A stretch of DNA of 64,000 nt from Pecten maximus (Eukaryota). The position numbers and the translations under genes are program-made. The stretch covers positions 11,780,001-11,844,000 of the forward strand of contig NC_047019.1 in the NCBI RefSeq assembly GCF_902652985.1, read 5' to 3'. Positions 15,370 through 49,489 of the stretch are shown in pieces. Every line of letters starts with the position of its first letter. Position 1 is the stretch's first letter. Below the pieces are notes generated by a model that saw nothing but the letters and a program-made list of their open reading frames with translations, was not told the DNA's origin and did not search any database.

Positions 15370-15599
15370 TGGTTTGGTTTGTTTTTGTTTAATGGCCTAT
15401 TAACAACCAAGGTCATTTAAGGACGTGCCAGGATTTGGAGGTGAGGAAAGCCGGAGTACCCGGAGTACCGGAGAAAAACCACCGGCCTACGGTCAGTACC
15501 TGGCAACTGCCCCACGTAGAGTTCGAACACTCAACCATGATATAGAGGGCTAGTGATAAAGTGTTGGGGCACCTTAACCACTCTGCCACCGCGGTCCCC
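15370..15599 (-). mobile_element. tRNA-derived SINE (V-domain-like), full length
   Basis: A box GTGGCAGAGTGGTTAAG, B box GTTCGAACTC, central TTTTTCTCCGGTACTCCGG and an AAACC tail. 11-bp TSD TGGTATAAGTT (15359-15369 and 15600-15610). Near-identical to 49096-49318. Confidence 0.9.
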
Positions 15600-16426
15600 T
15601 GGTATAAGTTATAACACTTATAAGAATACTGCAATCACAAGATATAGAGTGTCAATTACATGTATTATAAAGTTTAAAAGAATAAGAATATTGACTATTC
15701 AGACAGCATGATATGGTTGATGTTTGTTCCTGGTATGTAACTTATACTTACCAATTTATCTCTAAGGGCTTCCATGAATAAAAAAAAAATAGCATTCACC
15801 AAGAATACCCTAGCATATATAAACATTTCTTACCAGTGAAGCTTACATTTCTTTCGAAAAACTCCTGATTATCTCGGTTTGTCCCCGATCGTTCAAAAAA
15901 CTAAAACCATTGTGCTAGTATATCTGTATCATTATGGACAACATTGCAAGTATATTTTGCCTAATTATGAATTTTTATTCAATTTTTTTATTTTTGTCTT
16001 TGTTAAATCCCATTGGGCGTTTTTATACTTTCACACCAGTGATATAAAACGAATTGGAAAAACAAATTGAAAAATCATCGCAATAAAGAAAGTATTTCCC
16101 TTCCTTGTAATTCATACATCATTAAGATGTTTTTCTAAACTGGAACCCTACTGCTTTTTTTAGAAAGGAAATTTAAGAATATACCACCACAGGTTATAGA
16201 AACAGATGCTTTTAAAATCGCCAGTTTAATGTATGTGTATTGTATCCATATACCATGCTATATGGCAATGTCAGAATATCGAAAGCTACTGTGTAATAAC
16301 AATATTGTCAAGTCATAAATACTGTCTTCATCTCGAAAAGAAAGAACTTTGTGAAAGTTTTAGTTATGTTCCCATCAATACGAGAAATAAAAGCCTCGTT
16401 CAGTAAATTCCATATTACACTACTAC

Positions 16427-19400
16427 TCATGTAAGATCCTCTATTTGTGGATGAAATATCATTCCTTGTTGCATTGTGACATCCTCTTTCCGACTGTAGA
16501 ACAGTAGATAGGCGTCTCCGTTCGGATTGGTTGTGGGATTGGCTCCAGTTGAGACATGCGTGTCACTACAGCGATACCAGCTGTTTCCTAATCTGACAGT
16601 AGCTGTGTAATGACCTCCATTTATACTTCCGTGGTGGTTTACAACTCCATACAGATCATAAGGTATGCTTTTACACTGTGAAATAAAATATATTGAAATT
16701 GCGGTTTCAGTAAAAGCGATTTGGACGTATACGAACGTCTTGCACATTTATAAGTATATTGTTTTTTCAACATAGGCGCTTTCTTTCGAATAGTTCACGT
16801 GTTTGCAAACGTTCAACTTAAAAATATCAGACGAATTATTAAAAGAAGTGGCAAAAATGCCGACAAAATGTTAAAGGGTCTCTTACTGTGAAGCATCGTA
16901 TTCATTATTTTACAAACATACCTTTTCATCAAGTTTTATTTCATTCGAAAATTTGATTCTTGCGATGTTCTTGCGAATTCTCTTCGTTCTATAATCCATG
17001 TACTTTATAAAGAAAATACACATTCTTTCAACATTCTGTTTAAAACATATATAGAATACAGATGACTGAAGAGAGGTGTTTAAACAGCTTCAACGGTGTA
17101 TAAGGCATGTATAGAACGGATTGGGTCATATTATTCATAAACACTTTGGAATTTAAAAAAAAAATCAAAAAACTAAAAAACAATAAATTTTATCATGGCT
17201 ATAAAGATGAATGAAATATATAATTAAGCAAAATTCTATGTTACCTCCTCGAATCGTCCCATCTGTAACACCAATATCTTAGGAAGTTTTGTAAAGACTA
17301 ATTGCTTCTTTGCTACTGTATCTGAAAAAAGACATTTTGTGGCTACAATTTTATCGCTAATAATGATTAAAAGATAATCTGACGTATCATGTTAATTTTT
17401 TATACTCAATTTGCCAAATATTCAATATGAACTAAAACAAAATATTCGATTCATCACTTCTAACTTCTTACCTAGATGTTTTTCCTCACACATTCTACAT
17501 TGAAGGAGGTTTTTCTCAAATGTTTCCTCACTGCAGAAGTCTTTTATGCATGCATACAGGTTCTATTTTGAAACGAAGATATGATGTAATATAGAATCAT
17601 GTTGATAACAAAAGAAATGGACGCAAAACTATCTTAATGAAACAATTTAGGAGGAACCTTCAATGCAATATATACGCTCCTTAAGATGATAGTTTCATGC
17701 TAACTCTTGCAGTACTGATATCTTGATCTTCTAAGCGTTTGTGTCAAACATAAAAATCGTGATTGTTAATTGATAGTCTACGATGGGCGACAGCGGTCGT
17801 CGTCTCATACACGCTATTAGAAAATATAGAAAGATGTGTGCTTGAAAAAGTATAACATCATGACACTTCGTACAGGCGTGTAAGAAAAATGTTTATAAGA
17901 ACTAGAGGCCCATGGGCCTTAACGGTCACCTGAGATTTGAAATATTTCAGTTAATTAAATTGACCGTTTTTGGCCCAAACCATCAGTCCCTAAGGGTCAG
18001 TCAAGGCCAACATGTGCACATCATCAAACTGTCATCACATACTCGTAATGTTATCCAAATTAGAATTAATTCCAAACGATCGTTAAAAATGTGATTTCCC
18101 TATATAAACTTTAGTAAAGTTTACCCCCTCCCTAGGGGCAAACGTGAAACCACAGGGTGATAAAATCCACAATTTTAGTAAAGCATCTTATACCCTTCCA
18201 TCTATGAAGAGTACCTAAAACTGTATTTGATTCTATATTATTTGGATCGTGAAAAGAAGATTCTTGAAAGTTTAGTCAATGTGAACCAAATTAGAATGAT
18301 TTCCAATGGAAATCAAACAAATCATAGTCTAAAATGTGATTTCTCTATATAAACTATAGTAAAGTTTAGCCCCTCCCCAGGGGCAAACGTGAGTCTCAAG
18401 GGTCATGAAATTCACAATTTCGGTAAACCACCTTAAGACCCTTCCATCTATGAAGAGTGTTTGATTCCACCATATCTCAGAGTAGAGAAGAACATTTTTG
18501 AAATTTCAGTCACTTTGACCCTTTTTAGCCCCACCCATCAGCCCCTGGGGGTCAATTAGGGCAACATATGCATACCATCAAACTGTCATCCTATGCTGAT
18601 AATATAAACCAAGTTAGAACGAATTCCAATAGAAATCCAACAAATAATAGTCAAACATGTGATTTCCTTATATAAACTATAGTAAAGTTTACACCTTTCC
18701 CAGGGGCAAACGCGAGACCCCAGGGTCATGAAATTCACAATTTTGGTAAAGCACCTTAAGAACCTTTCGTCTAAGAACTCCCTGCCAAATTTCTTTGATA
18801 TTTTGAGGTTTTGGAAACGAAGTTGAAAATGTAAATTGTTTAGGGACGCACGACGGACGACGACGGACAAAAGGTGATTAGAATAGGTCACTTGAGACTT
18901 CGTCTCAGGTGACCTAAAAAGTGTACCATGACAAATCGTATACTCAAACGATTGCTACCAAATTCACTAAGATTGCTACATAAAGTTTAGAACGGCAGAG
19001 ACATTTTTAACACTTCTCAGAAACCGAATACATAAGTTTATATATATATATAGGTTTACATGATTGAAACGTTATAGCAAAGTTTGTCCACCAAAGTTGT
19101 GTTGACTCGGCTGATGTTAATACAATTCTCTCCATCTTCGTGAAAATCGATTCAATTTCTTGTCATCTACATGAATATGAATGAATGATGGATCTCTACA
19201 TCTCTTTATTTTTCATATAGGGGAAATGTCAAACAGTGTAGAGTTTGAATGTCAACATTAAACAAATGCTAGGTTCAATTTTTTTTAAAACCCCGACACA
19301 TGATACGAGTACATAGCATCGTAGCATATACATGGGTAAATAAGACCAGTATGAAATCATGGGTAAATTGGACCAGTATGAAATCATGGGTAAATTAGAC

Positions 19401-22400
19401 CAGTATGAAAACAGGGCTAAATTAGACCAGTATAAAATTATGGGTAAATTAGACCAGTATGGAAACATGGGTAAATTAGACCAGTATGGAAATATGGGTA
19501 AATTAGACCAGTATGAAATCATGGGTAAATTAGACCAGTATGAAAATACGGGTAAATTAGACCAGTATGAGATCATGGGTAAATTAGACCAGTATGAAAA
19601 TATGGGTAAATTGGACCAGTATGAAATCATGGGTAAATTAGACCAGTATGAAAACATGGGCTAAATTAGACCAGTATAAAAATATGGGTAAATTAGACCA
19701 GTATAAAATCATGGGTAAATTAGACCGGTATGAAACCATGGGTAAATTTGACCAGTATGAAAACATTGGTAAATTAGACCAGTATGAAAACATGGGTAAA
19801 TTAGACCAGTATGAAAACATGGGTAAATTAGACCAGTATGAAAATATGGGTAAATTAGACCAGTATGAAAATATGGGTAAATTAGACCAGTATGAAAACA
19901 TGGGTAAATTAGACCAGTATGAAAACATGGGTAAATTAGACCAGTATCAAAACGTGGGTAAATTAGACCAGAATGAAACCATCACCTTAAGAAATAAAAT
20001 AATATAAAAGATATAACCTCTTGATTTGCTATTGGCATCAGAAGACTTGTAAAACGCTGTTCATCGGAATATTCCACCTGAGAGAGAAACAAAAAAATTG
20101 TAAAACAAATAGTTATATTGTTACCAAATATTTTTATTTCTATTGTTGCCTTTCAAACAAATTCTAACACATCACTCACTATACATTTGGTCCTTCTGTA
20201 GCATGGTCAAAATCGTACGCCTCTAATCCAGAACTTAGTTACGTTCATGATGGGAACTATTTTCATTTAATTCATTGAATTTAATTGAATTAAATCAATG
20301 TTAATTGATTGAGAATATATTGCTTTACTAATAAACACAAAATGTACTCACGTGATCACATGTGTTATATTTGAATAGGTTCGTCATCATTCCTTCAAAT
20401 ATTTCGCAAGGGTTTCCGTCTATAAACATAGAAATAACTTATTTGTTGTATCTGTAGTTGTGAGGATCATTTTCCGAAGGCAAATTTATGGAAAGAGATG
20501 ATAATCTTCAATTTAATACTACATGGTACATACTGGTAATTCTTATTTCACGGGGAGAAAACATCCTGACTATTTCTACTATATTTAAAACTTAACTTTA
20601 TACGAGGTATATCACTCAGGTTTTACATTTTTAAAGATATGTCTAAATGATTAAAAGCATTAAACAGTTATAAGCAATAAATTATGTATCATTTGCAGTG
20701 CATTTCAAAACACATGATCTAAATCGGGTAGGAGATCCTGTCCCCTGTACTGAATGTCATGGCTTTTATTTTGGTTACTGAAACTCCGTGTTCTGTATCG
20801 AAAATGTCAGACATGTGGGTAAGCTCGGTAGAGGCAACTCCATTACATCAGAATTGCCATCCAGAGCTTACAGTATTTTTTTCTGCACGTACATGTCCTG
20901 GTAGTCATAAATTACCTGGGCCATAGAAAAGAGTATTGACATTATTTAACATTTAGGTCGTTATTGTGTTTTGCTTTCTATAGCAATTCAAAACTGATTA
21001 AATTTTTTAAGCTCTACCGTTGATTAACACATCATTGCGGTTGCTATAAGCGGAGCAGGAAATGCTTGCTATCAAAACGTCTGCTTCCTCTTCATGATTT
21101 GTTTCAATATTTCCTTTTAAGATTATTTATCCATAAGTATACATTGAAACTATTGTAGATTTTTCAACGAAGTACAAACCATTTACATATTATAAATGAT
21201 AGGAAAATATCTCGGAACACATACTGAAAAGCAAATTTGGCGAATCCTCCCTTGTTCAAACAAGACAGGCTCATACTGAACTACATAATCTACGTATATT
21301 GTCGGTGGCAAGCAAAGCTGTATGATTAAAATTGACAAAGTAAGCGCTTGTTGTCTCTCTGTATACTGAAATATGTTACAATTATTAAGATTGATTTACA
21401 AAAACCAACGAATGATATGAACAAAGATATATTAACATACCTGAATCGGCCTGCACGCAGTTAATAAGTGCAAGAAAGAATGCATGACTGTCATCCTGTC
21501 TCCCTATACTAAATGAATCTTCTCTGTAATTGAGAATGAAATTTAACTACACATAAAACTGCCTGCAAAATTTCTGATTAATATCCTGCTCTGCAATCAA
21601 CCATACCACACCATAACGTTAAAAAACCTGTGCAGAATTATATCCTGTAATGGTATTGTACAGGTGGATAGTCGGAGTGCAACTGTATAAGGGCATGATA
21701 TTACGATGTGAACAACGAATCAATCCAATATTAAACCGGATAAACTTTCTGTCTATAAGTGGACGGGCGGACGGACGAACGGATTGATTTCAATATGTCT
21801 CCATAACTAGGACAAAGAAAACAAACTCAATAAAACTAAATATTCCTGAAACACCGTTTGTTAAATGCCAATACACTAGACACACGAACATTATACAGGT
21901 GTGCATACATCAAAGTAGATAAACAGACGTAGTCTCCGGATATGAATATTCTTCCAAATCAAATTCAATGTGATGGATCAATATTTGCATAACTTGACAT
22001 TAATGAACACCTAATGATTTTATGTGTTGTGATGATATCCGATCTGGAGCATCTGGAGAGTTTGAGAGATCACCAACCTTTTGAATACTGAATGAAGTAG
22101 ACTATGCACTATCTCGTAGTAGACGCAACGAGTACCAGGCGTATTTAGCTCAGTCAGTATCTTTTTCAACAGCGAACCACTCCCTTTCTGACACTACAAT
22201 GTAAAAGTTATTTGAATAATTTTCCACTAAATGCACATCGTATCATAATTGTCATAACGCTAACCACTAGATATAAAAAATAGTTCCACTTTCAAGTGAC
22301 AATATTCTAAACAGTTATACTCACATTTTCAAGATAACTTTGTAGCGAAGGTGATTTCCCTAAGACCTGTTAAAACATAGATTCGTCATCATAATGTCGG

Positions 22401-25400
22401 ATTTTAAAGTAATCAATATAAACCAAAACTTTCACAGAAATACAAAATTTTGATTGAAGCAGTATAAACATTATGCCATTCCCAACCCTATTATTCTAGT
22501 ATGGCTGCTTATAGAAACATATCATGCCATTGAACAAAATCTGTTACTTAGTTTTATTTCTACAGACATGCGTGGATGATTGATCGTGGTTATGACGTTG
22601 ACATTTGGCTTTTTTTTTAATTCATATACGCATGTCATCGAATGTCTTATCAAGGAGTTTTACTTTCAAAATATAAACACTGTCCACCATAAGTCAGTAT
22701 GTGGGGATAATTGGAAATTTCTATACCTTGGGATAGAATAGAGAAATATTCACCCTAGGAGGAGATTTTCTGTGTTTAATCGGTGGGTTTGCGGATGAAT
22801 TGATTTTATATTAAACGTTTCTTTAATTGCATCATAACTTGACTTACCTGAAGAACACTATTTGCATAACAAGTATTTCCGAGGTTAGGTATTCCCTGAA
22901 ATTGAAAGGATCATACTCATTTTACCACGTATGGCTGCACTGGACATATCGTAGTTAGTTAGTCTGATAAGTTGATAATGGTAATAAGCCCAATTACTTA
23001 AAACTGTGTTCGCATTACAATTTGTACAATGTAGAATTCTTACGAACTACATGATATGGTACTGGGATGATGAAAATGTTTTCGAAATTAAAATACGAGT
23101 ATACGGGTAGGATATATCTGCATGTACATTCAACCTACGGAAAGGTCTTTATGAAGTAGTGGATAACGACCATCCGATGAAAAAGTAAGTGATTAAATTA
23201 CCCTCGCATTCTGTAGGTACTAGGTATCATATAGCCTTTTCAAGGTTTTTTTCTGGAAACATCCATTTCAAGAAAAATTTATCGACTAGGGGAAAATAGG
23301 AGGCTTCAGTATAGACGAACACGTCAATTTGATACTCTTGTGAATGTGCCGTCATCTGATGTCATAGACTTCTATGAAGGGAGAGGTTATGAAAACAATA
23401 CAATGACAACATACCTGCAACTTAATTGGAAAGCCGTTGTTGTAATTGTTCGTTTTCAAAATGATCAGTGAGTTTCTAACTTTTAGTAGCTACGTATAAC
23501 TTACCGTTACATGAGCCCGGCCACTTGAAGTTCTTCCTGTGAAAATTGTTCAGTTTGTATAATTCATAGTTGCTTAACCATATATCATATACATAGATAA
23601 TTATACTAGTGCAACACCACAAGCAATTTACATATTTGTTGTAAAACTTTCAAATTCACGGAGAGAGTTTTTCATTAATTTAACCAATAAAAATACATCA
23701 ACATAAAACTATTTTGAGTTCTTAATTCTTCATCAACATGATCATAGTCATTATAGACGAATTATGAAACATTTGAATGTTTGTTGAGTGATAGTTTAGC
23801 AATTATATCCAGTAAGATTTTCAAAATAATCTCACCTTGAGGATAATTGCTATGTGGACTGCTTGCATTTTTTATGGATGCGTGCTGAAAATAAAACAAA
23901 AAGACAATCAAATTATCTAGGTAAACACAATTGCATGGTTAACGGGCGTTCAATCCTCAAGTGCGTGCATTTTGGTTTTGATTTTGTTTTTGTTGGGTTT
24001 TTTTTTTAGGTTTTTCAAAAAAAAAAAAAAAAAATACAAACATTTGCCCCTTATTTACCAAATCTTTATCTCCTTTGGGACATTTTCCTTTGCTCTTATT
24101 TTGATCGATCTTATAGACTTTCTCTTTTACATTTTGATATGCTTCTGTTTTCTTAAATAATGATACTAATACATTGTCCGATATTGTTTCTGCTATTGTC
24201 TTGCCGTATTGCGGAATTGCGATATACATTTACCGGGGAAAGCTGCGTATTTGTCCGAATTGTTGTCCATGTTGATTCACCCACAAAAGAATGGACTTGA
24301 TAATTCTTATTGTTTTCCTTCAAACTGGGGTTATCTTCCCTGTAAGATTTTGGAAGATCACAAGATCCGTCTGTTATATGGCTCTTTCCCTCAGAGTTGC
24401 CGTTGAGTGAAGATTCGGGCTGAACATCGCTTTGTGGATATTTTTTCTCAAAGTTATCCTCAGAGCTGGATTCAAGAGGAGCACTATGATCAGGGTGTCT
24501 CGCTTTGTCTCCAGCTACAGTTTCGGAATACTGTTTAGTGGGGCTATTGTTTTCCGGGAATTGGTTGTTTGCGGTAATGTCTTCCAATCGTATATCCTTC
24601 TGTAAATTCTTATTGTCATTGTGAATCGGTGCGGTGTTCTAAATAAAAAAATATATCTTTTACCAATGAATTGTTGATGAGTTTTACAAATCATGAAATA
24701 CCTTTCCTTTTTATATAAACTGTGCGAACAACTAGAAAACATATACAATTTTTTTTATTGCAAAATGCAATCAACAGCGTTAAAATTCTATAAAACGTAA
24801 CCAGATGTCTTTGATAATGGCACTTTGATGTATATAAAAATAGGTTTTCTTCAAATCAACAGAAACATAACATTTTATAGTATTAGAGCTGACCAAATTT
24901 TAAATGCCATTGAGAACAGTAAGTACAGTGAGGACAGTAAACAAATTGTTTTTTCTCTCTTTTTAGTGAGGAATTTCTATGGGACATCTGCTGAATTATT
25001 TTTTGACAAATTCACAAATCAATTCGAATGATCCAACAACAAAACTAATTGAAATTCTAGAAAACTCTATTACATGCAATCAAAAAATGCTTAATAGTGA
25101 AGAAAAATGTATAATTCGTTTTGCTAAAGATGTTGTAATAGTCACACATATATACATAAACATTAATGAGGAGTTTAATGGATGCTTGTAGCCATTACTT
25201 CTCTAGAGACAGCTGAATCCCTCAATGTTGTAGAACCACTCGGCGAAAAGGTCGTGACCTTCGGCGGCCCCTCTTGATGTGAAAGTGTAACAAGGTGTTG
25301 TGTGTTCTCTGACTGTGCTTTGTTGGTCTGTAAACATTATTAAAATGTGAATTAATATTGAATGGTGCTGTCATATATTTTTTCTCGAACGGATTCATTG

Positions 25401-28400
25401 CAACAGGATGATTACAAGATGCCCAAGTGCCTTAACAGTCATCTGAATTTCATCAAAGTTTGCAATTTTTACAATTTGGCAAGCAGGAAATTTGAGCAAT
25501 AGGTAAAACATTGACACATAAAGACATTGAAATGATGTTACTTCTTGTCTAATAAGCAATCTTGAATAGACCTTTTTTATGGTTTGAAATTTAAGGCCAG
25601 GTTGGTGATGTCTCACTTATAATTAACAGCAAGTCCTCCTATTGGGACTCTGTCCCGAGGGGTCAGACCTGCCTCATGTATTTAAGATATGATTGCCCTC
25701 TGCAATTGATTTCTCACGCTAAATTTGGTAGAAATCCACTCAAAGGTTTAGAAGGAGTAGTATTTTAAAGCAAAATTACTGCAAAGTTCCCATTTTGAGG
25801 CCTTGCCAATCTGGCCCCATGGATCACACCAGCCTCATTTATATAATACATGATAGCCCTTCATCAATGATGCTCCACATCGCACTTGGCTGCAATCCAC
25901 TCAGGAGAAGGAGTGTTTTGAAGCAGAATTTCAGCAAAGTTTCCAGTGGTTAGACCAGCCCCATTTATATAACATATTAATGCCCTTCCCCAATTATGTT
26001 TCCCGTCAATTTCGTTGTAATACACCAAAGGTTTAAGTAGGGGGTGGAGTTTTAAAGCAACATTTCTGGAAAGTTTCGTTTTCCGAGCCCTACCACCCTG
26101 GCCCCATAAGTCACACCAGCCTCATCTATATAAAATATTGGTCCTCATTTATAAAGAATATCATTGCCCTCCTAAACGATAATTCACACCAAAGGAGGTA
26201 ATCCGATTTGGGGTTAAGAAAGAGTTGCGTTTTGAAAAAAAATACCCGGATTACCTTAAAATGTGAATTAGATTTGAATGGTTCTGTTATATATTTACTC
26301 GAATAGATTAATTACAATAATGTGTCTTAAATTAATTTGGATATGAATCATATTTTCAAATTTTGCAATTTTATCAGTTTCCTACTGTAATTCAAAGGAG
26401 ATGTGCTATTTTGTTTCTTTAAAAAATAACTTTAATTTAAATGTTCTTGCATATACATTTCAATTGCGACTGTTATTTGACTTTCGCTTGGTGCAAATAT
26501 TAACTATTTTTAACTTATTTTAATAATCGTACATACACACTTAATTTCAAAACGTTAGTGAGACTGTTTGAAGCCCTTACCGCTGCAGAAACAGCTGTAC
26601 CCTCCAATGTTGTAGAACCTCTCTGCAACAAAGTCGTGACCTTCGGCTTCCCCTCTAGATGAGGATGTGTATTAGGTTTCTGTCTGTTCTCTGACTGTGG
26701 TTTGTTGGTCTGTAAACGTGATTAAAATACCAATAAAATTCGAATGATGCTGTCATACATTTACTCGGATTCATTGTAATAATTGGGATTTCTTTCTCTG
26801 ATTAATTTTGAATCTGATTTTGATTTTTAAATCAAGATTACAGGCAATTTTAATCAGTTTCTTACTCTAGACTTGCTGATTTGGTTTTTTTGTCTCTTGA
26901 AAAATTCAATCTAATGAGAACTGGTCCATCGATCACTAAAGCTCACAATGCAAGTTAGTAAGCTTCAAATCGAGATTTAGAAAAAAAGTCTTCAGTAATC
27001 GTTTCTGATACATCCCCCTATAACTAGAGTATATACCAGTCATCGTATCTTAGTGTGGACACTGTGTGGTCTGTTTGGATACACATAGCCGGTTCAGACC
27101 TCTATATAAAGGCTCATTAGTTGTCTAGCAAGTATAACTACTTCATTATTTGCGCAAAGCGACACATCACATACTACGTCCGTTTTCGATCTCTCAATCA
27201 CCCTCGCGCCCACGTTTTTTTTCGCAATATGCCAATATCAGCATATAGACACGATAATCAAACAGGTATTTGTCAAAAAATGATTGTAATCGATTAAAGA
27301 TAGTCACAGTCTAGATTACATTTCAATATGAAATGATCCACAGCCGAAGCAAAATAATCTGAACAATATTGCAAAGACGACAGAGGCTTCTACCTTGGAT
27401 GTTTTAGTAGTATGGCTTTATAAGCAAGAATGGGTAAAAACAGTAATATTTCAAGTTAAACTGTATATCCATCATAAAACGAATACTTGTCAAATGTGAA
27501 GGTTTGCATGTGTTTTACCAGGTTAACGTAAAAACGATGAAGATCTTAACATTCGTGTGTTATATACCACAAAGGCCAGCAAAGACATATATAACATTTA
27601 ATTTTGAGAGGAATTTGTAGAATAACTGAGAGATAATGACCATATTTACTTCTCTATTACGACCTCCGGTTGTGTGTTGTTATTAACGTGATCGATCTGG
27701 TCACGCGGTGTAGAATACTTATTACCGGATGTGTTTGAGTGCATGTAAGTGTGACAATGTCACGACCTTTTATAGCGGTCGGATCCTGCTTGGAGGCGTT
27801 TAAACTAACACTTTCAGCTTTAAGCTGCGATTGTTGTTTGACACTCGTCTGGTGCAAATGTTTCGTCATTGGTTTTACCATCCATAAAACGGAACACTAT
27901 CAGTCATACATGAATTTATTTCATGCAATATAGACCTAATAAGAAACTATCTTAAAAAACATAACTTCAATAGCTACGGACTAATTCATCCAGATGATTT
28001 TATTCCTTAATAATTACGAGTTGATGATTGCAGCCAACCTATTCATTTGTTTCGTTTTTCTTTTTAAGTTTGCATTCTTATAATATTGATCAAAATCTGC
28101 ATCTATAACAATTAATCAAAATCGTATCGGAAATTCAATTCAAACAACAAAAATAATTGGCCTTAAATATGTGTCTACATGGGAGAGAAAAACAAAACAC
28201 AATAACTTGAAAGTAAGTGACCCTCGGCGACGTGGTCGATTTCGGCTGCCAAACTGGATGTGGAATAAAGATCTGTCCGTTCTCAGACTGTATTGTATTG
28301 GCCTTTAATCCAAATGAAACTAACATTTCAATTTGTGTGGATATGTTAAACATGTATCCGGGAAGAAAAATAGCGGTTTGAATATTTTTTAAATATTTGA

Positions 28401-31400
28401 AACGATACTTTAATTACCAGACAATGTCAACTGTTTCTAACTGTAAAAAATGACATTGCCGTTGGAAAATAATTTTGACTGGAGTATATTTTTTTTACTT
28501 TAGATAACTGATCGATGAAATTTGCATTTTGCAATTGTCGTTTGGCATTCACCATGCGCCCTGGTCTTTTCACCTTCTTTTCCATCTTTAAAAAAGAACA
28601 AAATTATATAAGAAACATATATAGTGCTGTTTTAAAGATCGCCTTAATCAACCATAAACTGATTTTAAAAAATCGGAAAACAAAGCTCGTCTAAAAAGCA
28701 TTTGTCCTTTTTTGGCACAGATTCGTTTGGCTTATTTGAATGTGACAATTAATTCATATTGCTTTTCTTCATATTGATTTAACAATTTGATAGATCATAT
28801 TAAAACCCTTCAAAGTCTTACTTATCAGGATACGTAGCAATAACAATACAAACTGGATACGTGAATAAAACTTAATGGGTTTTTTTTCAATAAAAGAAAA
28901 CAAAACTATACACGTTATTCGAAAATTACAAATTATTATGCAAATTAGGTTATAGCTTTCATTTCATAATATATTTAACTGACATGTCTCCTAGGCTCTA
29001 AAACACTAAACTGGTCAATAATTTTGCTTTGTTGCCCTGATAATATATTGTGATTTTTCCATCCCCTTTCTCTCCCTTTTTTGTCTATTTATCTTTCTAT
29101 TTATGTATGTCAATACTGTCTGTATGTCTGTGTCTCTGTTTAGTCTGTCTGTGTCTTTCGGTCTAAGTAGGTTGGTGTTAGTCTATGTATCTGTTTGTCT
29201 GTATATGTCTGTCAGTCTTCCTGTATATGTCTGTGTCTCTGTTTAGTCTGTCTGTGTCTTTTTGTCTAAGTAGGTTGGTGTTGTTAGTCTATGTATCTGT
29301 CTGTCTGTGTGTATGTCTGTCAGTCTTTCTGTATATGTCTGTGTCTCTGTTTAGTCTGTCTGTATCTTTCTGTCTAAGTAGGTTGGTGTTGGTTTATGTA
29401 TCTGTCTGTCTGTGTGTATGTCTGTCTGTTTGTCTTTACATGGATGAATAGCAGGATAATAGAAACAGAATGTGTGTTTAATATGCATTTTCTTATATAT
29501 GCATGTATACAATAATATATACAACATGTGTAGTATGTGTGCACTTGTATGGGTATATTTGAGTTGTAGTAGGTGCGGTATGTGGATATGTTTTCATGTA
29601 AGTGCTGTGTGTACATGCCAATGGATGGATATCAAAATAGTACATGTATGTGTAGTAAAGCATGTGTGCTCATTGTCATATGCAATAGTTAGTATATGAC
29701 TATATGTAGTACGTATGAACATGTATATGTGTATAGTATTGTGTACATGTATGTATATGTACTAGAACATTCATGTGTGTGGGAAGGTGTTTGCGTGGGG
29801 TGTGTCATTCTCATTCATCAGAGTTACTTCCCTTCGTTTCATATGTCACTCGGTCAGTACGTAGCTTGCGTAGCTTAGCAGACTCTGGGGGGCGAGAATG
29901 GGGGTGTGTGGGTGTGTATGTACATGTGTGTGTGTGTAAGCTTGTGCGTAGTAAATTATAATAGAAATACACATCAGTGCTGAAAGGTGTGAATGACCAT
30001 AAAATGTAGATGTCTTGTGTTTGTTGATAATATATGTTTAACTGAATAAAATATAAATTACAAAAAAAAAAAAATTGCAAATTATATTTTTGAATAGCAG
30101 GAAAAACTTACTGACACAGATGAATTGTTCGATGAATGAAACATTTTTGAGATTCCCTGCTGCTGCGAGCTGGTCGGATCGTTTGGAGGATGTGGAATAC
30201 GGATACCGTCTTCATTGAATCGTCGATTTCCTATCTTTAAATCACATTGTAATGCAATTTCAATATTAGTTTGTTTATTGTTGTTGTTTTGTTTTTGGTT
30301 TTTTTGTTTGTTTGTTTTTTTTTGTTTTTTTTTTCTTTCGAGATACCAAGAAACGTTACGATTGTTTCGAGTGGTTTATTGGTTTAAAAGTAAAGAGTAT
30401 ATTATAATCGATCATATTAAGCATTAAGCAGGGCTATGACCATGTACATGTACGAATATTTTTAATAATGGTTGTCAAATAAACATTGATTACCGTTAAA
30501 CTAAAATGTATAGACATGCTTGTCTCTTACTTTAGGGGAAGTATCTTTCACATTTTCCTTCGCATTCCAATATTTAACGTGTTCATTTCAAACGATCTTG
30601 AGATAACTTATGCAGATCAGAGTCGGACCGACTCGACTTTTATTTATATTTACAGGAACACAATAATTCAAAGGTTTTAATGAGTACTTACAACCAATAC
30701 ATCATTAGGAACAGATGAACCACTCGATGGATAAGTTGTCCGTGAGTTTCTCCGCGTAGACCTAATCGGGCTCTTTGGCAGCCCCATTGGAGGATGTGGA
30801 CTGTAGTTGTTCCCCTGTATTTTGCTGGGCTTTTAAACATATTGAAATGAATGTGGCATATATTTCACTCTATTATATCAGGATTCACTATAAAAGTTTT
30901 AATTTTGCTATATAAAAATAAAAATAATAATAGCCATAACTGTCAGTCCTGTTGGTCCAGTCCATCATATTTGGCAAGTTTAAAACAGATCCAAGAATAA
31001 ATAGATAGCAATATATTCTGCTAAAATACTACCATTGTAATTTTCCTTTGGAATTCAATGATATTTTCTGCTGAGTGATGACAGGTTCAGATAAGACTGT
31101 TCTCGTTTGATACTCACTAGACGCTGACGTCTTTGCAATGTCCTCCCCGTCTGTGAAGAATGTACGAGGTAGGTTTTTAAACATAAATATTATTGTTTTA
31201 AATATCGCAGCAATCAACTATTAAACGATTGGTAAATCGGAGAATAGAACAATCTCAAAATCAATGGCGCTTGTCTTGAATTTTAAAAAAATCAGTAAAT
31301 AAAAAACATCGACATTTCTTTTATCTCCACCGACACGACTTACTAGATTTTTAATGTTACAGCTTATCTTAATGTTACATATACAACCCCCTGTGTTATA

Positions 31401-34400
31401 TTAAAGTTGAAGATAACACATTGTATATAACGTAAATATCATTGACATATTATAGACATGACTTTCATTACTAATGAGCACAGACCAAATGGACAATCCA
31501 TATAATTTTAAGACTGGCCATACTCGACACTGTGGCCTGCGTGTTGTGAAAAAAATCAGCCAAATAAACGTACCACTGTGTTTGGTAGTGATGGAGAACG
31601 TCGTGGTACATACTGGAACTTATCACCTTTGTCAATGTTTTGTCGATATCCCTGGCTCTGACAAAGGGCAAGTGTGGGTTAGAAGCGTCAATATAATTTT
31701 TTTAATTCTGAAAAATCTAGAATCCAGTTAATTAATCATGAGCATTTTTTTTTTTTTTTTTTGCATTCGAACTTGAAAAAAATAATCTTTCAAAATAACA
31801 TTGTCCCACATGATATTGATCGTGTAGTAATAATGACAGTACAGACAAGTAAATTGTCGAATATTCGAGGTAATCCATCCCTTTTTCGAGACATTAGTAA
31901 ACTAGTAAACTACAAACAGACATAGAACATTAAACTGTTACATAGTAGTAGTTCAGTAGATAACAACGTACAATATCGTTTCTAGTGTGCCCCCTAGGGG
32001 GAAAAGGCATTGTAAAAATGATGCAAAAGGGGCAAAATGGGAGAAAAAAACATAAAATGACACACATGTTTTACATCTGGTATTATAAAAGGAAAGTTAT
32101 AAAGATACAAATACTTGGTACATGATATATAATTTTGTATATTGTATTGTATAAAATATAACATAGTAATTTAGGGGTGAAGTGAATGTTATATTAAAGT
32201 AATATTCAGTTATCTCCTTAAACTTATGATTTATTCAAGGAATACAATGATGCAGCAAATATATATATAGAGATTTGCCTGTATGTATGCAATATTTATT
32301 GTCGAATAACTGCCTGAATAGAATTGAAATATCAATTATAAGTAAATTATGAATTTCCATACATTTCTATTGAGAATCTTATTACATGTATGATAAACAT
32401 TGTATTTTTTAAACAAATAGAATTGTTCAATGTCTTAATATCTTAAGACCTTTGATTTTCAAGACGGATTTTGCAAATATGAGGAAGTAAAGTTAGTAAC
32501 CCCCACCCCATCCAAGTCCGTAAAATCACGTGTAATGAGTTTCTGCTATTACCGTCAATAAAGACAAAAAAATGAAAATGCTTGATAAAAAAATCCATTC
32601 AAATTAAAGAACATGATATTTATTTATGATGTTAACATTATCAGTTCCTTTCAGAACTGATGTAACAGGCTAATTGATAAACATGTGGGAAACACTACGT
32701 TACGTTTGTGTTAATGATCCCATCATAATGAACACCTTATGTGGTGAACATATGGATATAAATAAATCGCCTAATAAAAGGTTTAAAAAGTAAAGGCACA
32801 TGTTAAACCAATGTGATGACAGCGCGTGTTATGATAGCAAACGTTTTTGTTTATCTCCGCAGGTGGCTAATTTCGTCCTATAAGACACTACCTAAGAGTA
32901 ACAACAAACATATCAGATTCTTACCCTATCATATGGAAGTTCCTTTTCCTGATTGGCGACCAAGGGCAATTGAAATTTTGCCTGTTGTCGCAGGTTTGAG
33001 CTGCTGTTATATTCGCTTATTGATTGTCTTCCCTGTTACATTAGAAGAGAAAAGGTCTGATATTTTTACGTTTTTTTTTTCATGACAAACATGTTAAAAG
33101 GGAGGGGAGGCTTACCATTGCCTTGTATAATTGTGTCAAATGATATATCAAATGTAAAATATGTTTATCATTCTGGAAGTTTTTCTTGTGAATGATAAAT
33201 ACATAGATTCTGTTATGCATTTGGTAGTTATCATTTTATATTTTGCAACGTTGATTTTAGTTTTGTATTTAAAATCTTTCGATAACATCGGTCAATTAAA
33301 TATTTCAGTAAACATGATCAAATTATCTCGAATAAACAAATGTGCCCCAAATCCTGTAATTCTGAAGACAAAAGAAGAATTTTACGAAATGTTATCTTTA
33401 CCCTACTGAGCCATGTCTTTCCGGCCGCAGAGAGGTCACACTCCTCATTGATACAGCATTGAACCTCCTTTAGACAATTATGCTTCAGACCAGATTTATT
33501 CAAAACTATTCATTCGTTTAGGACTTGTAATGATTTAGAGGAGTCACTCCTATTTACCCTATTAGGCACCGCCTCTCCGAACCCAGGGAAGCCACATAGA
33601 TTTCCTTCACCAAATAAGGTTCCTGGCCAAATTTGATCAAAATACATTCTGTGGTTAAGCGATTTAAAGGATTTGACCTATTTTTCGTATTCTGACCAAG
33701 TGAGCTAAAATAATATCTGTAATACATTTGAAATACTCATAAACAGCCTAAACTCATAGCATGCTTAATATCCCTCATTTGTAGGAATTATTTTTGTATC
33801 TATTTAAAACTTCTGTTATCCAGTCATTACATATCTATAAAGTGAGCATGGAATGCGAATTGTTGCCAGCGCGTAGTAAGTGCAAGATTTAATGGCTTGT
33901 GGTTGATTAGTTCTAGATCATATAAAATTTGTTGAATAAGTATTAAAATAAGTAAAATAAGCAAACAAACCTCCATTCGCTTATTCTGTGATTCTTTTCG
34001 TTTTTGCAATCCAGTGGGCGTTGTATTGCTGCGTGTTGAGGGAGTAGAAGCAGCAATAATCTGTGTTGTTGCTGGAGTCTGTAAAAGGGAATGTAATTGA
34101 GTTTGGAATATGCGTATATAAAGTACTCGTTTAGGACTTAATTGTTGTCGATTTGGCTTGACATTAGTGCTACGTTAGATGATTACAAACATCCATCACT
34201 TTGTACCACTATTCAAAGGTTTTTTGTTATTATTTTACCGAATTTAATAGGGAAATACACATGTTGCCTTAATTTTACATTCTCTTTGCAGTGAGTTAAA
34301 ATAAATGAAGCTTTGCATTTCATAGACCTGTGTATAAGCGAATGTAATAAATTAATGTAGTATAAGACTAGCTTAGTGTAACTAATTTAAGGTGTAGCAT

Positions 34401-37400
34401 TTCGAACTATTTATTTTACCTGATTCCTGATTATGTGACAATGCGGATATATCTGAACAGATGAAACATCAACTTCAGCTATCATGTTTTGCTTTTGTTC
34501 AAAACAAATCAAATAGGGATACTGTTGTTTATTGATAGGACCAAATAAGACTAAAACTTAACACTTAATAACTTAAGACACACTATCTATTAATCACTTA
34601 ATTGACTGTTTAGGTATTCTTTTAATCGTTAATCACCATTTGATTCTCTTCTATATCCATCTCCTCTGGCTCATCTTGGTTAAGTTCGAAATAAGCTTTA
34701 TTATCCGTCTTCACGTCGGTTTTCTGTAAAATGTTTAATTTACCTCATAAGACAAAATTTCCTGTATCTTATATTATTGCTAATATCACATGAATGAATC
34801 AATTTGATTGACTAATAGCTCTAACCTCATGACTTACAACATTTTATTAAGGTGAAGGACGGACAAAAGCTCAAAAACTAAAATTGTTCGAGTGAAAATC
34901 TACATAAGTTAGGAAAAAATATCATCGTTAAAGTCACAGAGGTAGAGCAGAAAATGCAATTGGTAGAAATTAGTATATAGTAACATAACACATCTACACT
35001 CATGTTACACATATACGTTTACATTCCACATATACGTTTACATTACATATATACATATACATTACACATATATGGTGACATTATACATTAATAATTTCAT
35101 TACACATATACGGTTACATTACATATGTACAGTTACATTACACATACATCGGATGGAAATCTAAGTAAAATAGGACAATGTATTATCGTTATAAAGTCAC
35201 CGCGATAGTGCAGCCAATGCAATTGATAGAATTTAGTATATAGTAACATTACACATCTACACTTATTTTACACATATACGCTTACATTACACATATAGTT
35301 GAAATACACATATACAGATACATTATACATACACGGTTACATTACACGTATACAGTTGCTTTATACAGATATCGTTACATTACACATATACGGTTAGATA
35401 CACATACATAGTTAAGTTACACATACATAGTTACATTACACGTATACAGTTGTTTTATACAGATATGGTTACATTACACATATATAGTTACATTACACAT
35501 ATATGGTTACATTACACATATATAGTTACATTACACGTATGTAGCTACTTTACACGTATGTAGCTACTTTACACGTATACAATTTTAGTACACATGTACA
35601 GTTATATGACACATATATAATTACATTTCAAATACATAGTTACATTACAAATACCGTAAATAATTACATTACACCTATACCGTTGCATTACGTATACGGT
35701 TACATTACACTGTACAGTTATATTACATATATATAGTTACAGGAAAGCTCAAGAAAATATTCGGAATAAACAACTATTTTGTCGAAATATATGTAAGTAT
35801 GCCCTGTAGTATGATTTTTTTCACTTGACGCTAAAATGAACTAGCATATTAAAACGTTTACCGTGCAGATTTTTAGGGGACATCTTTCTTCGTAAAATCT
35901 GCCCTTCAGCATGTGTCGTAGCTGTATACATACTCGTGCAATGGGTTGGCTTTTCAGTTCTTTTTTCCATACAGATAATATCAATAATGAATCTTTTTCT
36001 TTACATTGTATCTACAATGAAATGATTTAAACTTTCAAAAATCGCTCAGTACATCTGGTAGTGGATACAAATATTACATGATTAACTGTAGCTTTGATAC
36101 ATAAAGTTTATTTAAATGCAATACTTCTTTCATGCAAGAATAACCCGTTTTTATATAATAATTTTCATTGTTTATTGAAAACTTCGCATTTGGTTTGTTT
36201 TATCGACTTCAAGAAAGCTGCGCTTCGTGTCGAGTTTGAATTTTAAAAGGACATAGAAAAAACATGTTTGCCAGATTAATTGTATTGTAGATTTGTTTAC
36301 ATAAACAGCGTTCCTTACGTAAGATGTGCTTAAATGAATGACCGATTCATTATAATCTAATGATTATTACTAAAGTTTGGTAACTTCTTAGTCTGAAGCC
36401 AGATAGTCAATTTGTTTTGGTCGAAATCTAATCCAATTAAAAGTCATTTTTGAAAAAGGAATAGTTGATATTATCACATGGTATTACCACTATATTAATG
36501 CATTAAACACAAACAGGATGTATTCACACGAAATTCCTGTTTTGATTGCTGGATATTGTATGCAAATCCGGTTTACCACAGGTACTTGATAAACATTCTC
36601 GACTCATTAGTATGTATATATGTCTTCTAAGTGTCTTATAATACATATATACGGACAGTGGGATTTAAAATTCAGAGGAAGTTTCTGTACAAGCTTCGAC
36701 TATCCCTTTCGGCATGTTTTCAGTTCAGGTATTGGAAATGAAATAGCTGCATATGGAAGTTAACTTACTTTGAGAGGTTTTCTAAATTTACGTTCTCCAT
36801 ATAAAACCTTATATACCACTTCAGTTTTTTTCTTTTTCTTGCGATATTTTCCTTCTGTCAATACGTACAATTTAACGTACCTGCAATGAAAACGGATACG
36901 GTATTGTCCATAACAATGTAATATCCAAAATACAGAAGTTCTTTGTTTGTTTCAGTTCATATTACATTTGATGATACACGTTTTGAATTTTTCATTTTTT
37001 TTTCTCAAAAAAAAAAAACGATATTTCAAAACGAGTGTATCATAGATCTAATATGAAGCAAAACTCACGATAGACCCTATTTATCATATGACTACCGATT
37101 TATCCGGTTTTGCATTTTCCCTCCGCTGCTCGATCAACTTATTTTTTTTTTTTTGTATCATTGTTAAAAAATTTTTAAAATCTGTCAAGTGCACTTGTAC
37201 AAAAAAAAAACAATGCTCATTTTGAACATATGAATCTTTCATAAAAAAACAGGTTATCTAAAAGCAAAGAAATAAAAGAAATGTTTTACGAAACACTCAA
37301 GCGGTGTCACAGACTAGCACTTGGTGCGAAAAACATTTATCCTATGGGACCATCAAACAGCATTTCTTAACACTGTTCCATTTACGTTTAACGTGGAAGG

Positions 37401-39310
37401 TACACCCAAAGAGGTTTTCATCAACAATGTGTTGGAAATACCGTGAAGGCGAGAGTTGGACCGAATTGTTAGCACAGTCGTTTTTCACGTTTTTTGTAGA
37501 CGAAAGCGTCAGCTGATTTTTTCAGGGTCACATTCGTGCTGGAAAAATCCAAATATTTAATTCGGAGAAATGTTTGGCATTTCAGCATTTGAAAGAAAGT
37601 GTGTCACAAGTGTAGGAGTTCTCGGAACCTTCAATCACAACACAGAAAAATAACATTACACGCGTACAACAAAGGGAGAAACTTAAAAAGTTTCATTAAA
37701 TGCCACACATGGTAGTATAATCTAATATCAAAGATTAAATTAACAGTTATGTACATGTGTTACTTGATATAATTGTACTAGCATTTCCATCCACCTTAAA
37801 TGTGATATAACAGATATCAGTGAATTACAAATCTTACGTTCCAGATTTAGGGAAGACTGAAGCACGCCAACTGATGTTTTCCACTGTCACCAAGCCATTT
37901 AAATTATAATCAATGGTGCATTGTAGTGTGTTGAAGTCCTGATAAACAAAATATGGAAATATTCAAATAGTACATCACGGAATTATGTACGATTTATTGC
38001 AACGTGTCACATTCATGTCCCAACATATTTACCAAACGAATCCACAAGTGTGCATTATTGAATGATCACATGTTAATTGTGACACTTTTGTACAAATTCA
38101 GCCGTCATTTTACATCATTTTTTGTTTTGTTTTTGTTTTCAGAAGTTTACACATATTTAATGGTTAAGAACGCTTTTCGAAATAGCTGCTTAATGAAATT
38201 CAACATTCAAAGTATTAAAATTTTGTATTTCCGTTCTTTCTCTTAAAAAATCTGTCACTATACGCAATAGTGAAAAATAGTCTCACAATGATTATCTACA
38301 AGCTCCACAATCGAAAGGTTGATCATAAAAGTATTATAACTGAGTTAACTACGTTGATGATACGCCTTTACCTTCAGATGATCAGTTGTTGATTTTATGC
38401 CAAGAGGTCTCTCTTCTGCCCAGGTAATGGGCCTCGTCGTTGAATGTCTTCCTGTATGATTTAATGATAAGAAATTAAAGGAATTTCAGTTAAAGTTTAA
38501 TCATTCATAACATGACTTAGGGTAGTTATTTAGTAAGTTTATTTGCTCTTACATCACAATGTTTAACGTAAAACTCAAATTAATACAATTACGTCGAAAT
38601 ATTAATCTTATTTAGTGTACGTATTGGAGATTATACTGATGGTCAATAAATTTTGTCTCATGTACTAAATAAACGGTGGGAAATTTAGTTTAACAAAATT
38701 AGACTAAATCTCCAACTTAGCTCGAAACTTGACACTGAACTGTTAGAATACAATAATTACAACACTGAATCAAATCTCAGAGTACCAGATCGGTGCCGTT
38801 TATAATTAATATATCTCAACTAAGATTTACAATCTTAAAAACTATATTTATGATAAACACATGAAATTAAACTTACGAATCGATTTCCAACAAATAATTA
38901 ATTAATGATTGATTAGAGTACATACAGTATCTATTTATGCATGTTAGCTGGCATCATTATTTTCTCGTTTTTATGAAGATTTTTCACGATATTTACACTG
39001 TCTTTATTTATTATTCAATCTGAAATTTTGCTGCCATATAATGTCATTTTAACAATTGGGCGTTAACATTTTCACAAATATATTAAGAACATAACTTAAT
39101 TCTTGTGGGATGGTGTTGGATGATTATACTAGATATAATTTTTTTCTGAATTTTCCTGTAATGAAACCCGGAAATAGTATCATTTATAAGCGTTAAATGA
39201 TTTTTTATGTGAATTTACGCTCCCTCACATTTTAATTTATAGAATATAGATAAGTACATACCTTTTTGCTCAAATGACTCTGGATGTGTTTTACTCTTTC
39301 TTTTGGCCAT
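16427..39310 (-). CDS. Gene 2: C2 domain + low-complexity linker + USP/peptidase C19 deubiquitinase (USP16/45-like catalytic domain), ~1000-1050 aa, ~30 exons
   Basis: USP exons: 22848-22895 (GIPNLGNTCYANSVLQ), 22325-22366, 22078-22193, 21441-21523 (QDDSHAFF), 20352-20419, 20018-20077, 17472-17562 (CRMC), 17245-17321 (AKKQLVFTKLPKILVLQMGRF), 16922-17002, 16427-16675 (YDLYGVVNHHGSINGGHY...WYRCSDTHV...AYLLFY). N-terminal exons: 39262-39310 (MAKRKSK), 38372-38451, 37838-37938, 36769-36880, 35862-36011. Linker exons, less certain: 34637-34723, 34420-34452, 33971-34078, 32925-33032, 31574-31657, 31118-31150, 30692-30829, 30112-30234, 28207-28302, 27726-27896, 26581-26709, 25199-25327, 24234-24638, 23836-23884, 23505-23536, 23336-23371. 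Confidence 0.75.
17900..18920 (-). mobile_element. Helentron-associated non-autonomous element (HINE/pearl-like) with internal tandem repeats
   Basis: Minus strand: TTTTTAGGTCACCTGAGACGAAGTCTCAAGTGACC (subTIR/IR), then a GTC/GTCC microsatellite and core repeats of roughly 240-330 bp. It ends CTCAGGTGACCGTT plus the hairpin AGGCCCATGGGCCT, then CTAGTT. Confidence 0.8.
19330..19980. repeat. 27-bp minisatellite, ~24 copies, intronic in gene 2
   Basis: Unit ATGGGTAAATTAGACCAGTATGAAAAC, lying between exons 20018-20077 and 17472-17562. Confidence 0.95.
25620..26250. repeat. Degenerate satellite-like core repeats, probable HINE remnant
   Basis: About 4 copies of ggtcacaccagcctcatttatataa..atgattgccct...aatccactca..aaggagtag..ttttaaagcaaa. 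Confidence 0.55.
29105..29440. repeat. TGTC-rich ~110-bp tandem repeat (3 copies), followed by a TG/TA-rich low-complexity tract to ~29940
   Basis: Repeated block tctgtgtctctgtttagtctgtctgtgtcttt..gtctaagtaggttggtgtt. Confidence 0.8.
34920..35740. repeat. Degenerate ~20-bp minisatellite (GTTACATTACACATATACG) with local segmental duplication
   Basis: The unit recurs throughout. The lead-in tcgttaaagtcac..gcaatt..agaa.ttagtatatagtaacat occurs at ~34925 and ~35185. Confidence 0.8.
35862..37938 (-). other. C2 domain exons of gene 2
   Basis: Three phase-compatible exons give LQCTIDYNLNGLVTVENISW...SGT|YVKLYVLTEGKYRKKKKTEVVYKV...FRKPLK|IQCKEKDSLLILSVWKKELKSQPIARVCIQL...RCPL. This follows the C2 pattern (YVKxY..KKKT; LxxSVW; IxxVxIxL) with a polybasic strand and no Ca-binding aspartates. 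Confidence 0.7.
36950..37060. repeat. Short inverted repeat, probable TE fragment
   Basis: TTCATATTACATTTGATGATACACGTTTTGAA versus TTCAAAACGAGTGTATCATAGATCTAATATGAA, around a T/A loop. Confidence 0.5.
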
Positions 39311-40141
39311 GGTCCGTTATATGGCAAGATTGCATTCGAAACATCTGCTTTGAGATAAAATAAAGATATATTTATAATCACAAAGCGAAAGAACGACGCA
39401 AGTTTCATTTCCTTATATAATAATACTATATTTCAAAAGGTTCATTTCATTGGGATTTACGCTAATTATATCATGTAACTGCAACACAAGGAACAGATCA
39501 GATCTGCATCAATCAAAAGCTTGATATTGTTTCTCGGGGTAATATCCATAAGACACGACGCCTAATCAGTTAATCGCAGTATCCAGTCTACTACACGTGT
39601 GTATGTGTGTGTTTGGGGGTGGAGTGTACATGTAGACGTATTTCCAGTATGTGGAGGAAAGAGTGAGGCATTTACAGTTAGGCATATTAGTATGATGTTG
39701 AAAAATCACTAAGGTTGATTTTCTTCTTGCAAAATTCAGTATATCATTCGCTGTTATGTTTGTGTACTATTGAAAGATGTGTTGCTTAATTCACTATTTG
39801 TATGTTTTGAAATATAACTTACTGTATACCATATTTTGATATTTAAATCCTGTATTTCACTTTCATACTAAGTTAAAATATATCAAATAAACAGTAAAGG
39901 AAACTTAGAATAGTATTACATGAATAGGAGCATATCGCCCAATAGCATAACCCTCGCGATCTCAATTTTTAAATACTATCATACATTATTACTTACTGAA
40001 AGGCTTTTCATACAATCTTAACAATACGTGTACTGACAAAATAGCTCGATGATAAACCAATATCTGAAGAAACAGCTAGAACTATGATAATAATTTACTA
40101 CTCACCTGTCTGGCATGTTGATGGTAGGATAACAGATGTGT

Positions 40142-49095: not shown

Positions 49096-49318
49096 TTTGG
49101 TTTGTTTGTTTTTGTTTAACGTCCTATTAACAGCCAGGGTCATTTAAGGACGTGCCAGGTTTTGAAGGTGGAGGAAAGCCGGAGTACCCGGAGAAAAACC
49201 ACCGGCCTACGGTCAGTACCTGGCAACTGCCCCACGTAGGTTTCGAACTCGCAACCCAGAGGTGGAGGGCTAGTGATAAAGTGTCGGGACACCTTAACCA
49301 CTCGGCCACCGCGGCCCC
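49096..49318 (-). mobile_element. tRNA-derived SINE (V-domain-like), full length
   Basis: GGGGCCGCGGTGGCCGAGTGGTTAAG (A box), GAGTTCGAAACC (B box), TTTTTCTCCGGGTACTCCGGCTTTCCTCCACC and an AAAC tail. Near-TSD TTGTCAA(C/T)ATA. Confidence 0.9.
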
Positions 49319-49489
49319 TTGTCAATATAAAAGACTCCTCCAATGTATACATATTTATAGACTGATTATGCATGTAGTACATTTCTCACCTAGATTTTCA
49401 TGTAGTAATGCTAATATATACAAATATTACACGTCGTTACTGTACATGTAAGTTATCTGATGTAATTGTACAAAAAACGAACTTTAAAT

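Follow-up and report, generated by a model that had tools for sequence, protein, structure and literature searches.

A minus-strand locus of the scallop Pecten maximus predicted to join a synaptotagmin-type C2 domain to a ubiquitin-specific protease

Gene model, orthologue and linker

The window, i.e., the whole stretch of 64,000 nucleotides analysed here (Pecten maximus, NCBI RefSeq assembly GCF_902652985.1, contig NC_047019.1, positions 11,780,001 to 11,844,000), carries on its minus strand a locus in which exons for a C2-like domain precede those of a ubiquitin-specific protease (USP). A first-pass annotation had proposed a single gene running from an ATG at 39310 to a stop codon that ends at 16427, and these coordinates are correct. 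RefSeq divides the locus into a 354-residue 'uncharacterized' protein (LOC117328540, here P0121), which exon 4 matches, and a 581-residue USP (LOC117326816, here P0001), with which the last exon is 100% identical. Since both proteins map to the locus, the proposed gene corresponds to two genes in the public annotation. The joined model has 28 exons, 2919 nt and 972 residues, with 0 internal stops and all 27 introns of GT-AG type. Its product equals P0121 over residues 1-350 and the whole of P0001 from residue 392, while the 41 residues in between (351-391) are encoded by exon 12, which is absent from both RefSeq records. The end of P0121 results from reading through a GTAAGT donor at 30691 to a stop, and the ATG of P0001, at the start of exon 13, is immediately preceded by AG. 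The joined model, which would correct the split public annotation, comprises the following features.

39310-30680, minus: P0121 (LOC117328540), from mapping of the protein onto the window
28585-16430, minus: P0001 (LOC117326816), from mapping of the protein onto the window
39262..39310, minus: exon 1, coding part with the ATG; basic N-terminus MAKRKSK; matches P0121 residues 1-16
38372..38451, minus: exon 2, N-terminal unstructured segment, residues 17-43 (predicted local distance difference test score, pLDDT, <50)
37838..37938, minus: exon 3, C2 β1-β2 and Asp-free β2-β3 loop, residues 44-77 (sequence and model)
36769..36880, minus: exon 4, C2 β3-β5, basic cluster Y78, K80, K93, K95 (sequence and model)
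35862..36011, minus: exon 5, C2 β6-β8, W129, Asp-free β6-β7 loop, residues 115-164 (sequence and model)
34637..34723, minus: exon 6, acidic segment past the C2, net charge -7; start conserved in Argopecten
33971..34078, minus: exon 7, linker, phase 0/0
32925..33032, minus: exon 8, linker, phase 0/0
31574..31657, minus: exon 9, linker, phase 0/0
31118..31150, minus: exon 10, linker, 33 nt; copy of exon 13 in its short version
30692..30829, minus: exon 11, linker; resembles exons 14 and 15; P0121 reads through its donor
30235..30691, minus: intron 11, 457 nt, joins the two RefSeq models (GT-AG, in frame; splice inferred)
30112..30234, minus: exon 12, bridge between the RefSeq models, residues 351-391; 3' end spliced to 28585 in RNA runs X1 and X2
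28499..28585, minus: exon 13, 'start' of P0001 in RefSeq but internal; alternative donor 28553 (RNA joints and loose ends)
26581..26709, minus: exon 14, linker, duplicated in tandem with exon 15 (joints in X1, X2 and X6)
25199..25327, minus: exon 15, linker (joints in X1, X2 and X6)
24234..24638, minus: exon 16, linker, 405 nt (covered in 4/4 runs; loose ends into exon 17)
23836..23884, minus: exon 17, linker
23505..23536, minus: exon 18, final linker exon
22848..22895, minus: exon 19, Cys box of the USP with N672 and the catalytic C677 (codon 22871-22869)
22366-22325, 22193-22078, 21523-21441, 20419-20352 and 20077-20018, minus: exons 20-24, USP
17562-17472, 17321-17245 and 17002-16922, minus: exons 25-27, USP
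16427..16675, minus: exon 28, His box H912 (16612-16610), S927, D928 (16564-16562), stop

For exon 12 an acceptor at 30230 was discarded because it leads to stops, and the acceptor used was chosen from the reading frame. Frameshifts suspected by eye in exons 3 and 5 were dismissed, as both exons are open and match P0121. Upstream of the ATG, a possible exon at 40107-40120 (minus) with a GTGAGT donor holds an ATG that is not in frame with the main open reading frame; together with an acceptor at 39347 (minus) it likely forms a 5' leader carrying a short upstream open reading frame.

A HMMER scan of 1.84 billion representative sequences with P0121 returned three proteins, P0121 itself and two from the scallop Argopecten irradians. 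One of these, XP_069140326.1 (557 residues; an isoform X1 of 559 residues is also listed), is a single annotated protein with both C2 and USP parts and is also the best non-self match of the Pecten USP domain. It is identical to the Pecten protein at 64 of 145 positions in the C2 region (44%) and at 183 of 305 in the USP (60%). The other, XP_069109383.1, is C2-only, and its accession is adjacent to that of a USP-only record, XP_069109384.1, the longest contig being 63.5 kb for both; the two are probably a second C2-USP copy split in annotation as in Pecten.

Between the C2 and the USP lies a linker of 504 residues in 13 exons, 11 of them in phase 0 at both ends. The first-pass annotation had counted about 16 exons rich in Ser, Thr, Pro and Gln; the richness stands (combined fraction 0.36; C2 0.17, USP 0.21), the number does not. 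Together with its flanking sequence, exon 10 duplicates exon 13 in its short version, and the acceptors and donors of the two line up (score 75; next in the window 43). Exon 11 resembles exons 15 and 14 (scores 68 and 46; next 35), its donor lying ~9 nt beyond theirs. Both RefSeq models therefore share one duplicated exon array, and the Pecten linker grew partly by exon duplication. The long disordered arm envisaged at first is no general feature, as the linker of the fused Argopecten protein has ~76 residues vs 504 in Pecten, and none of the 13 Pecten linker exons aligns with it better than the highest-scoring of 200 shuffles. Duplicated exons, exons in phase 0 and an alternative donor suggest that the linker is a flexible spacer of freely varying length and no conserved ruler.

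The C2-like domain and its basic face

Exons 3 to 5 had been read from the DNA as encoding a C2-like fold, with structure prediction proposed as the check, and this holds: residues 44-164 are predicted to form an eight-stranded C2 sandwich, and AlphaFold2, run on an alignment of four rows, gives a C2 β-sandwich with eight strands over residues 47-159 (pLDDT 60-90 in this block and <50 elsewhere). The ESM Atlas model of residues 44-170 reaches a template modelling score of 0.75-0.76 to the C2 domains of synaptotagmin-2 and DOC2B; by features it hits C2 clusters at 0.90-0.92. Foldseek places synaptotagmin I C2A first (E 2e-6) with 90 matches at E<=0.001, and among the matches listed 43/43 are C2 domains or C2-bearing proteins. 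VIA-align against 48,161 chains finds synaptotagmin XIII C2A best (Z 12.1, root-mean-square deviation 2.5, 111 residues aligned), followed by rabphilin C2A (11.1), synaptotagmin 1 (11.0), PI3K-C2 (10.6) and KIBRA (10.5); the top 25 of its best 50 are C2 domains or C2-bearing proteins, the first non-C2 row having Z 8.0. Synaptotagmin-type C2 domains align from model residue 43-46, those of Itch, Nedd4-2 and Smurf2 only from residue 56, which fits topology I in the Pecten domain and topology II in these ligases. As modelled, residues 44-164 almost certainly adopt the C2 fold of synaptotagmin type (topology I). The fold is no chance result, as indicated by the Foldseek matches and by the fusion of the same domain to the same USP in an independent species.

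Searches at the sequence level weigh against this assignment. Pfam finds no family in P0121 at E<=10, PF00168 being unmatched, and no C2 in protein P0134 or the C2 part of protein P0122 at E<=1; phmmer and profile searches of PDB sequences likewise give no C2 match. Since the top C2 structures in Foldseek are 13-22% identical, residues are equated by means of the model and of spacing. The Pecten domain would be a divergent member of the C2 class, recognized by fold only, and the locus would then reveal a C2 subfamily missed by sequence profiles. A word-based homolog search with exon 4 returned the protein itself alone among seven candidates, searches of the Pecten genome with exon 4 and P0134, in which the best candidates were scored, gave no second copy, and a scallop C2 profile had no match among the remaining 137 of 141 proteins, in the rest of the window or in 80 kb of flanking DNA. 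When the fused Argopecten protein was folded its C2 had pLDDT <50, the alignment containing unrelated N-termini, so that this model bears neither on the C2 nor on a contact between C2 and USP, and an Atlas search with this protein gave USP clusters only, at 0.82.

Calcium binding is unlikely because the loops are Asp-free: none of the five Asp of calcium-dependent C2 domains is found in either loop of the Pecten domain or of P0122. The early claim that these loops lack acidic residues is right for the β2-β3 loop (residues 69-76, none), and the β6-β7 loop (131-138) has one Glu. The polybasic strand is likewise present, as GKYRKKKKKT with five Lys rather than the GKYRKKKKT with four first read. 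Accounts of such domains describe how the Asp-poor topology I domain Slp-4 C2A binds phosphatidylinositol 4,5-bisphosphate (PIP2) by K398/K410/K412, how PIP2-binding topology I domains have a Lys on β3 and Lys-x-Lys on β4 (PMC7857503), and how a Tyr sits two residues ahead of the first Lys, as exemplified by dysferlin Y23 (10.1101/2021.02.10.430549). By sequence position Pecten has this Tyr/Lys/Lys/Lys pattern at Y78, K80, K93 and K95, and the fused Argopecten protein has it at Y94, K96, K109 and K111, in an alternating KIKVK strand. Y78, K93 and W129 are retained in all three distinct scallop copies and K80 in two, and the net charge of the C2 is +16, +13 and +10 in the three. Y78/K80 on β3 and K93/K95 on β4 are predicted from the model to form a concave basic patch. 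Basic residues at the PIP2-cluster positions of topology I domains are a better argument than a bare lysine run, and make membrane targeting plausible.

On this evidence lipid targeting is somewhat favoured as the job of the C2. Counting against it are the replacement of K80 by Glu in the second Argopecten copy, the shrinking of the five-lysine run to KIKVK in the fused protein of that species, and the Lys spacing, +13/+15 in Pecten vs +12/+14 in Slp-4, one residue longer. Moreover, a fold shared with C2 domains shows no function, and both lipid binding and catalysis are predicted only. The same C2-USP protein could instead use its C2 as a protein-binding or self-regulating module that recruits a substrate or adaptor or clamps the USP, which we consider unlikely. 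The very low identity to lipid-binding C2 domains, the Glu just mentioned, structural matches that include the protein-binding Munc13-1 C2A and RIM, and the acidic segment that follows the C2 in 3/3 copies and could cover the basic face would all suit such a module. However, all three copies are strongly basic, with Lys/Arg in the β6-β7 loop and alternating Lys on β4, as in electrostatic membrane binders.

One transcript or separate products

Among 24 RNA runs listed, eight cover part of 20000-24700, and four were mapped over 24070-29100, as contigs only; two of these, X1 and X2, belong to one study and their RNA label is a guess, though the contigs are spliced. Spliced joints 24638/25199 and 25327/26581 occur in X1, X2 and X6, and 26709/28499 in X1 and X2. 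An alternative joint, 26709/28553, in X1, X2 and X6 takes out 18 residues of the linker, and both donors of exon 13 are in use (depth 18.5 at 28553 and 33.4 at 28499 in X1). Loose contig ends at 24234 continue into exon 17 in 4/4 runs. Those at 28585 continue into the 3' end of exon 12 in two of the four, X1 and X2, each with two contigs (median 76 nt), and immediately upstream of that position the depth is 0 and 0.13; the first exon of P0001 is thus internal in these two runs. Elsewhere in the mapped region, an open phase 0 candidate exon in intron 13 (27896-27726, minus) is covered by contigs at low depth without joints and is therefore probably no regular exon, and intronic repeats at 25750-26250 and 28943-29100, with contig depths of hundreds to >1000, are probably dispersed elements present in many transcripts.

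It is very likely that the locus makes one transcript covering the C2 and USP parts. The single transcript of the first-pass annotation is borne out by the open frame, the RNA joints of exons 12 to 17 and the fused Argopecten protein; the chain of observations is not complete, as the splicing of intron 11 is deduced. This intron (30691-30235) and the joints between C2 exons lie outside the RNA-mapped region, one X6 contig runs unspliced through 28553-28643 (depth 3.8, 5 differences), RefSeq annotates two genes, and the split Argopecten records may be due either to the same mistake of annotation made again or to products that are really separate. These are also the points that would fit separate products, namely a protein with the C2 alone, whose end lies in intron 11, and a USP transcript whose start lies in or near exon 12, with the fusion ancestral or minor in Pecten; to them can be added an AATAAA at 30644, 36 nt past the P0121 stop. 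Such an arrangement is nevertheless improbable. AATAAA occurs 1.47 times per kb on the minus strand, exon 11 ends in a GTAAGT donor that is in phase with exon 12, exons 10 and 11 duplicate the internal exons 13 to 15, and fused isoforms X1 and X2 are annotated in Argopecten.

The protease, its possible task and its relatives

The protease domain matches UCH (PF00443) with 132.7 bits against a curated cut-off of 23.9 (E 2e-38), and the USP catalytic residues N672, C677, H912, S927 and D928 are in place. The active enzymes USP16, USP30 and USP45 likewise have Ser as the third catalytic residue, and the Asp after it is essential in most USPs tested (PMC10867860). The model of the Argopecten orthologue matches USP21 (E 1.8e-23), the USP fold of the Pecten domain being taken from the orthologue. 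Judged from its residues, the Pecten USP is likely an active enzyme. It had been called the most canonical USP of the cluster, and its Cys box GIPNLGNTCYANSVLQ (22895-22848) is indeed nearer to the usual USP box than the GLPNIESSSCYLSSLIQ and GLKNSKLTCAINAVVQ of its two neighbours in the window.

Taken as a whole, the reading that we put forward is a single 972-residue protein in which a predicted calcium-independent C2 on acidic lipids holds a predicted active USP near membranes, to which we give a probability of about one half. In this model, the C2 would dock without calcium on acidic lipids such as PIP2 at the cytosolic side of the plasma membrane or of endosomes. Docking would concentrate the USP near ubiquitinated membrane proteins, and the USP could then trim ubiquitin from membrane cargo or signalling complexes. 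That the basic strand and N-terminus are instead nuclear import or nucleic-acid-binding signals of an enzyme acting on chromatin or nuclear substrates is very unlikely, for although KYRKKKKK and MAKRKSK resemble classical import signals and USP21 and Ubp8, which act on nucleosomes, lead the fold matches of the USP domain, the lysines lie within a folded strand, hydrophobic residues interrupt their run in Argopecten, and the USP21 and Ubp8 matches are 22-26% identical and tied with many other USPs.

The closest published counterpart of a membrane-held C2-USP is the plant DUC family. The preprint describes a C2-like domain, a linker and a deubiquitinase that is selective for lysine-63 (K63) chains and plant-specific, and has DUCs reach the plasma membrane via a calcium-independent, phosphoinositide-binding C2 (bioRxiv 10.64898/2025.12.04.692294). 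The Pecten protein shares with DUCs an N-terminal C2-like domain, a flexible linker and a C-terminal cysteine-protease deubiquitinase. However, the catalytic domain of DUCs does not resemble the other families of deubiquitinases in sequence, whereas the Pecten protein has Pfam UCH, and the DUC C2 is NT-C2/EHBP1-like, whereas the best fold matches of the Pecten C2 are synaptotagmin-type (DUC being compared by description only). On that description the likeness is convergence, not homology: the Pecten protein would act in the manner of a DUC without being one. A C2 had been thought unusual for USPs, which agrees with the literature searched, where no C2-USP and no study of this gene was found, a result that does not show uniqueness among USPs; the combination of a C2 with a deubiquitinase does have a precedent in the non-USP plant DUCs, as they are described.

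The calcium-independent topology I C2 domains of Slp-4/granuphilin (C2A), PI3K-C2α, RIM1 (C2B), synaptotagmin XIII (C2A) and KIBRA have the same fold (Z 10-12) and share with Pecten the Asp-free loops and, by sequence position, a β3-β4 lysine cluster. Pecten is 13-20% identical to them with no sequence-level match, and its C2 is attached to a protease, theirs to a trafficking protein or kinase. NEDD4-family HECT ligases (Itch, Nedd4-2 and Smurf2) also carry an N-terminal C2 before an enzyme of the ubiquitin system, though of opposite activity. Their C2 is of the circularly permuted topology II and aligns with the Pecten model only from residue 56 (Z 7-8), whereas β1 aligns with the topology I domains; the comparison with NEDD4 drawn initially is therefore loose, as the Pecten C2 is not NEDD4-like. 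More tentatively, and somewhat short of even odds, scallops may have independently built an animal counterpart of DUC, in which a captured, strongly diverged synaptotagmin-type C2 puts a USP on PIP2-rich membranes to rescue ubiquitinated receptors from endocytosis, while duplicated and alternatively spliced phase 0 linker exons adjust how far the enzyme reaches. If true, animals too reached lipid-targeted deubiquitination, by a separate fusion. The C2-USP is seen in two scallop species only, with no phenotype link.

A tree of 19 of 21 USP domains (P0128 and P0004 were removed by a motif filter) groups the three scallop sequences at 98/98 and joins them to six oyster-type sequences at 97/95. 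This nearest clade, the oyster 'USP2-like/USP15-like' proteins, shares with the scallop USP the UCH domain and the Cys, His and Ser/Asp residues, and by the scallop C2 profile neither the oyster relatives nor the three neighbouring USP genes contain a C2. A Solemya USP relative has RING fingers where the scallop protein has its C2. The simplest history would be that a member of a bivalve USP subfamily gained a C2 module in the scallop line, followed by linker growth in Pecten. PF00168 is in none of the best 120 of 153 USP matches, nor in any of 15 in a second search, which is weak evidence since Pfam misses the Pecten C2 too. PF00787, the PX domain, is on 7 of the 120 USP matches listed, the named ones being from oomycetes; lipid-binding domains on USPs thus occur elsewhere. 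The neighbouring genes are the following.

about 48500-41500, minus: USP gene with Cys box GLPNIESSSCYLSSLIQ at 45767-45717; no C2 by profile
about 12500-3700, minus: USP gene with the divergent Cys box GLKNSKLTCAINAVVQ at 9121-9074
about 11.866-11.886 Mb, ~40 kb past the window, plus: fourth USP of the cluster

The first of these genes has an exon of tandem GTSNDKQQLQ-type repeats at about 48050-47650, and the Cys/His-rich N-terminal exons of the second (12469-12419 and about 12000-11831) resemble a zinc finger. A weak match (E 0.29) to a RING-like part of the Solemya USP lies upstream of the fourth USP. N-terminal modules (C2, RING or zinc finger, repeats) seem to be exchanged within the subfamily. 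Within USP intron 24 of the C2-USP locus, a tandem repeat of ~21 nt at 19344-19980 is open in several frames and looks non-coding. Finally, 15450-15600 and 49130-49320 hold two alike copies of a short interspersed element with near-identical translations.

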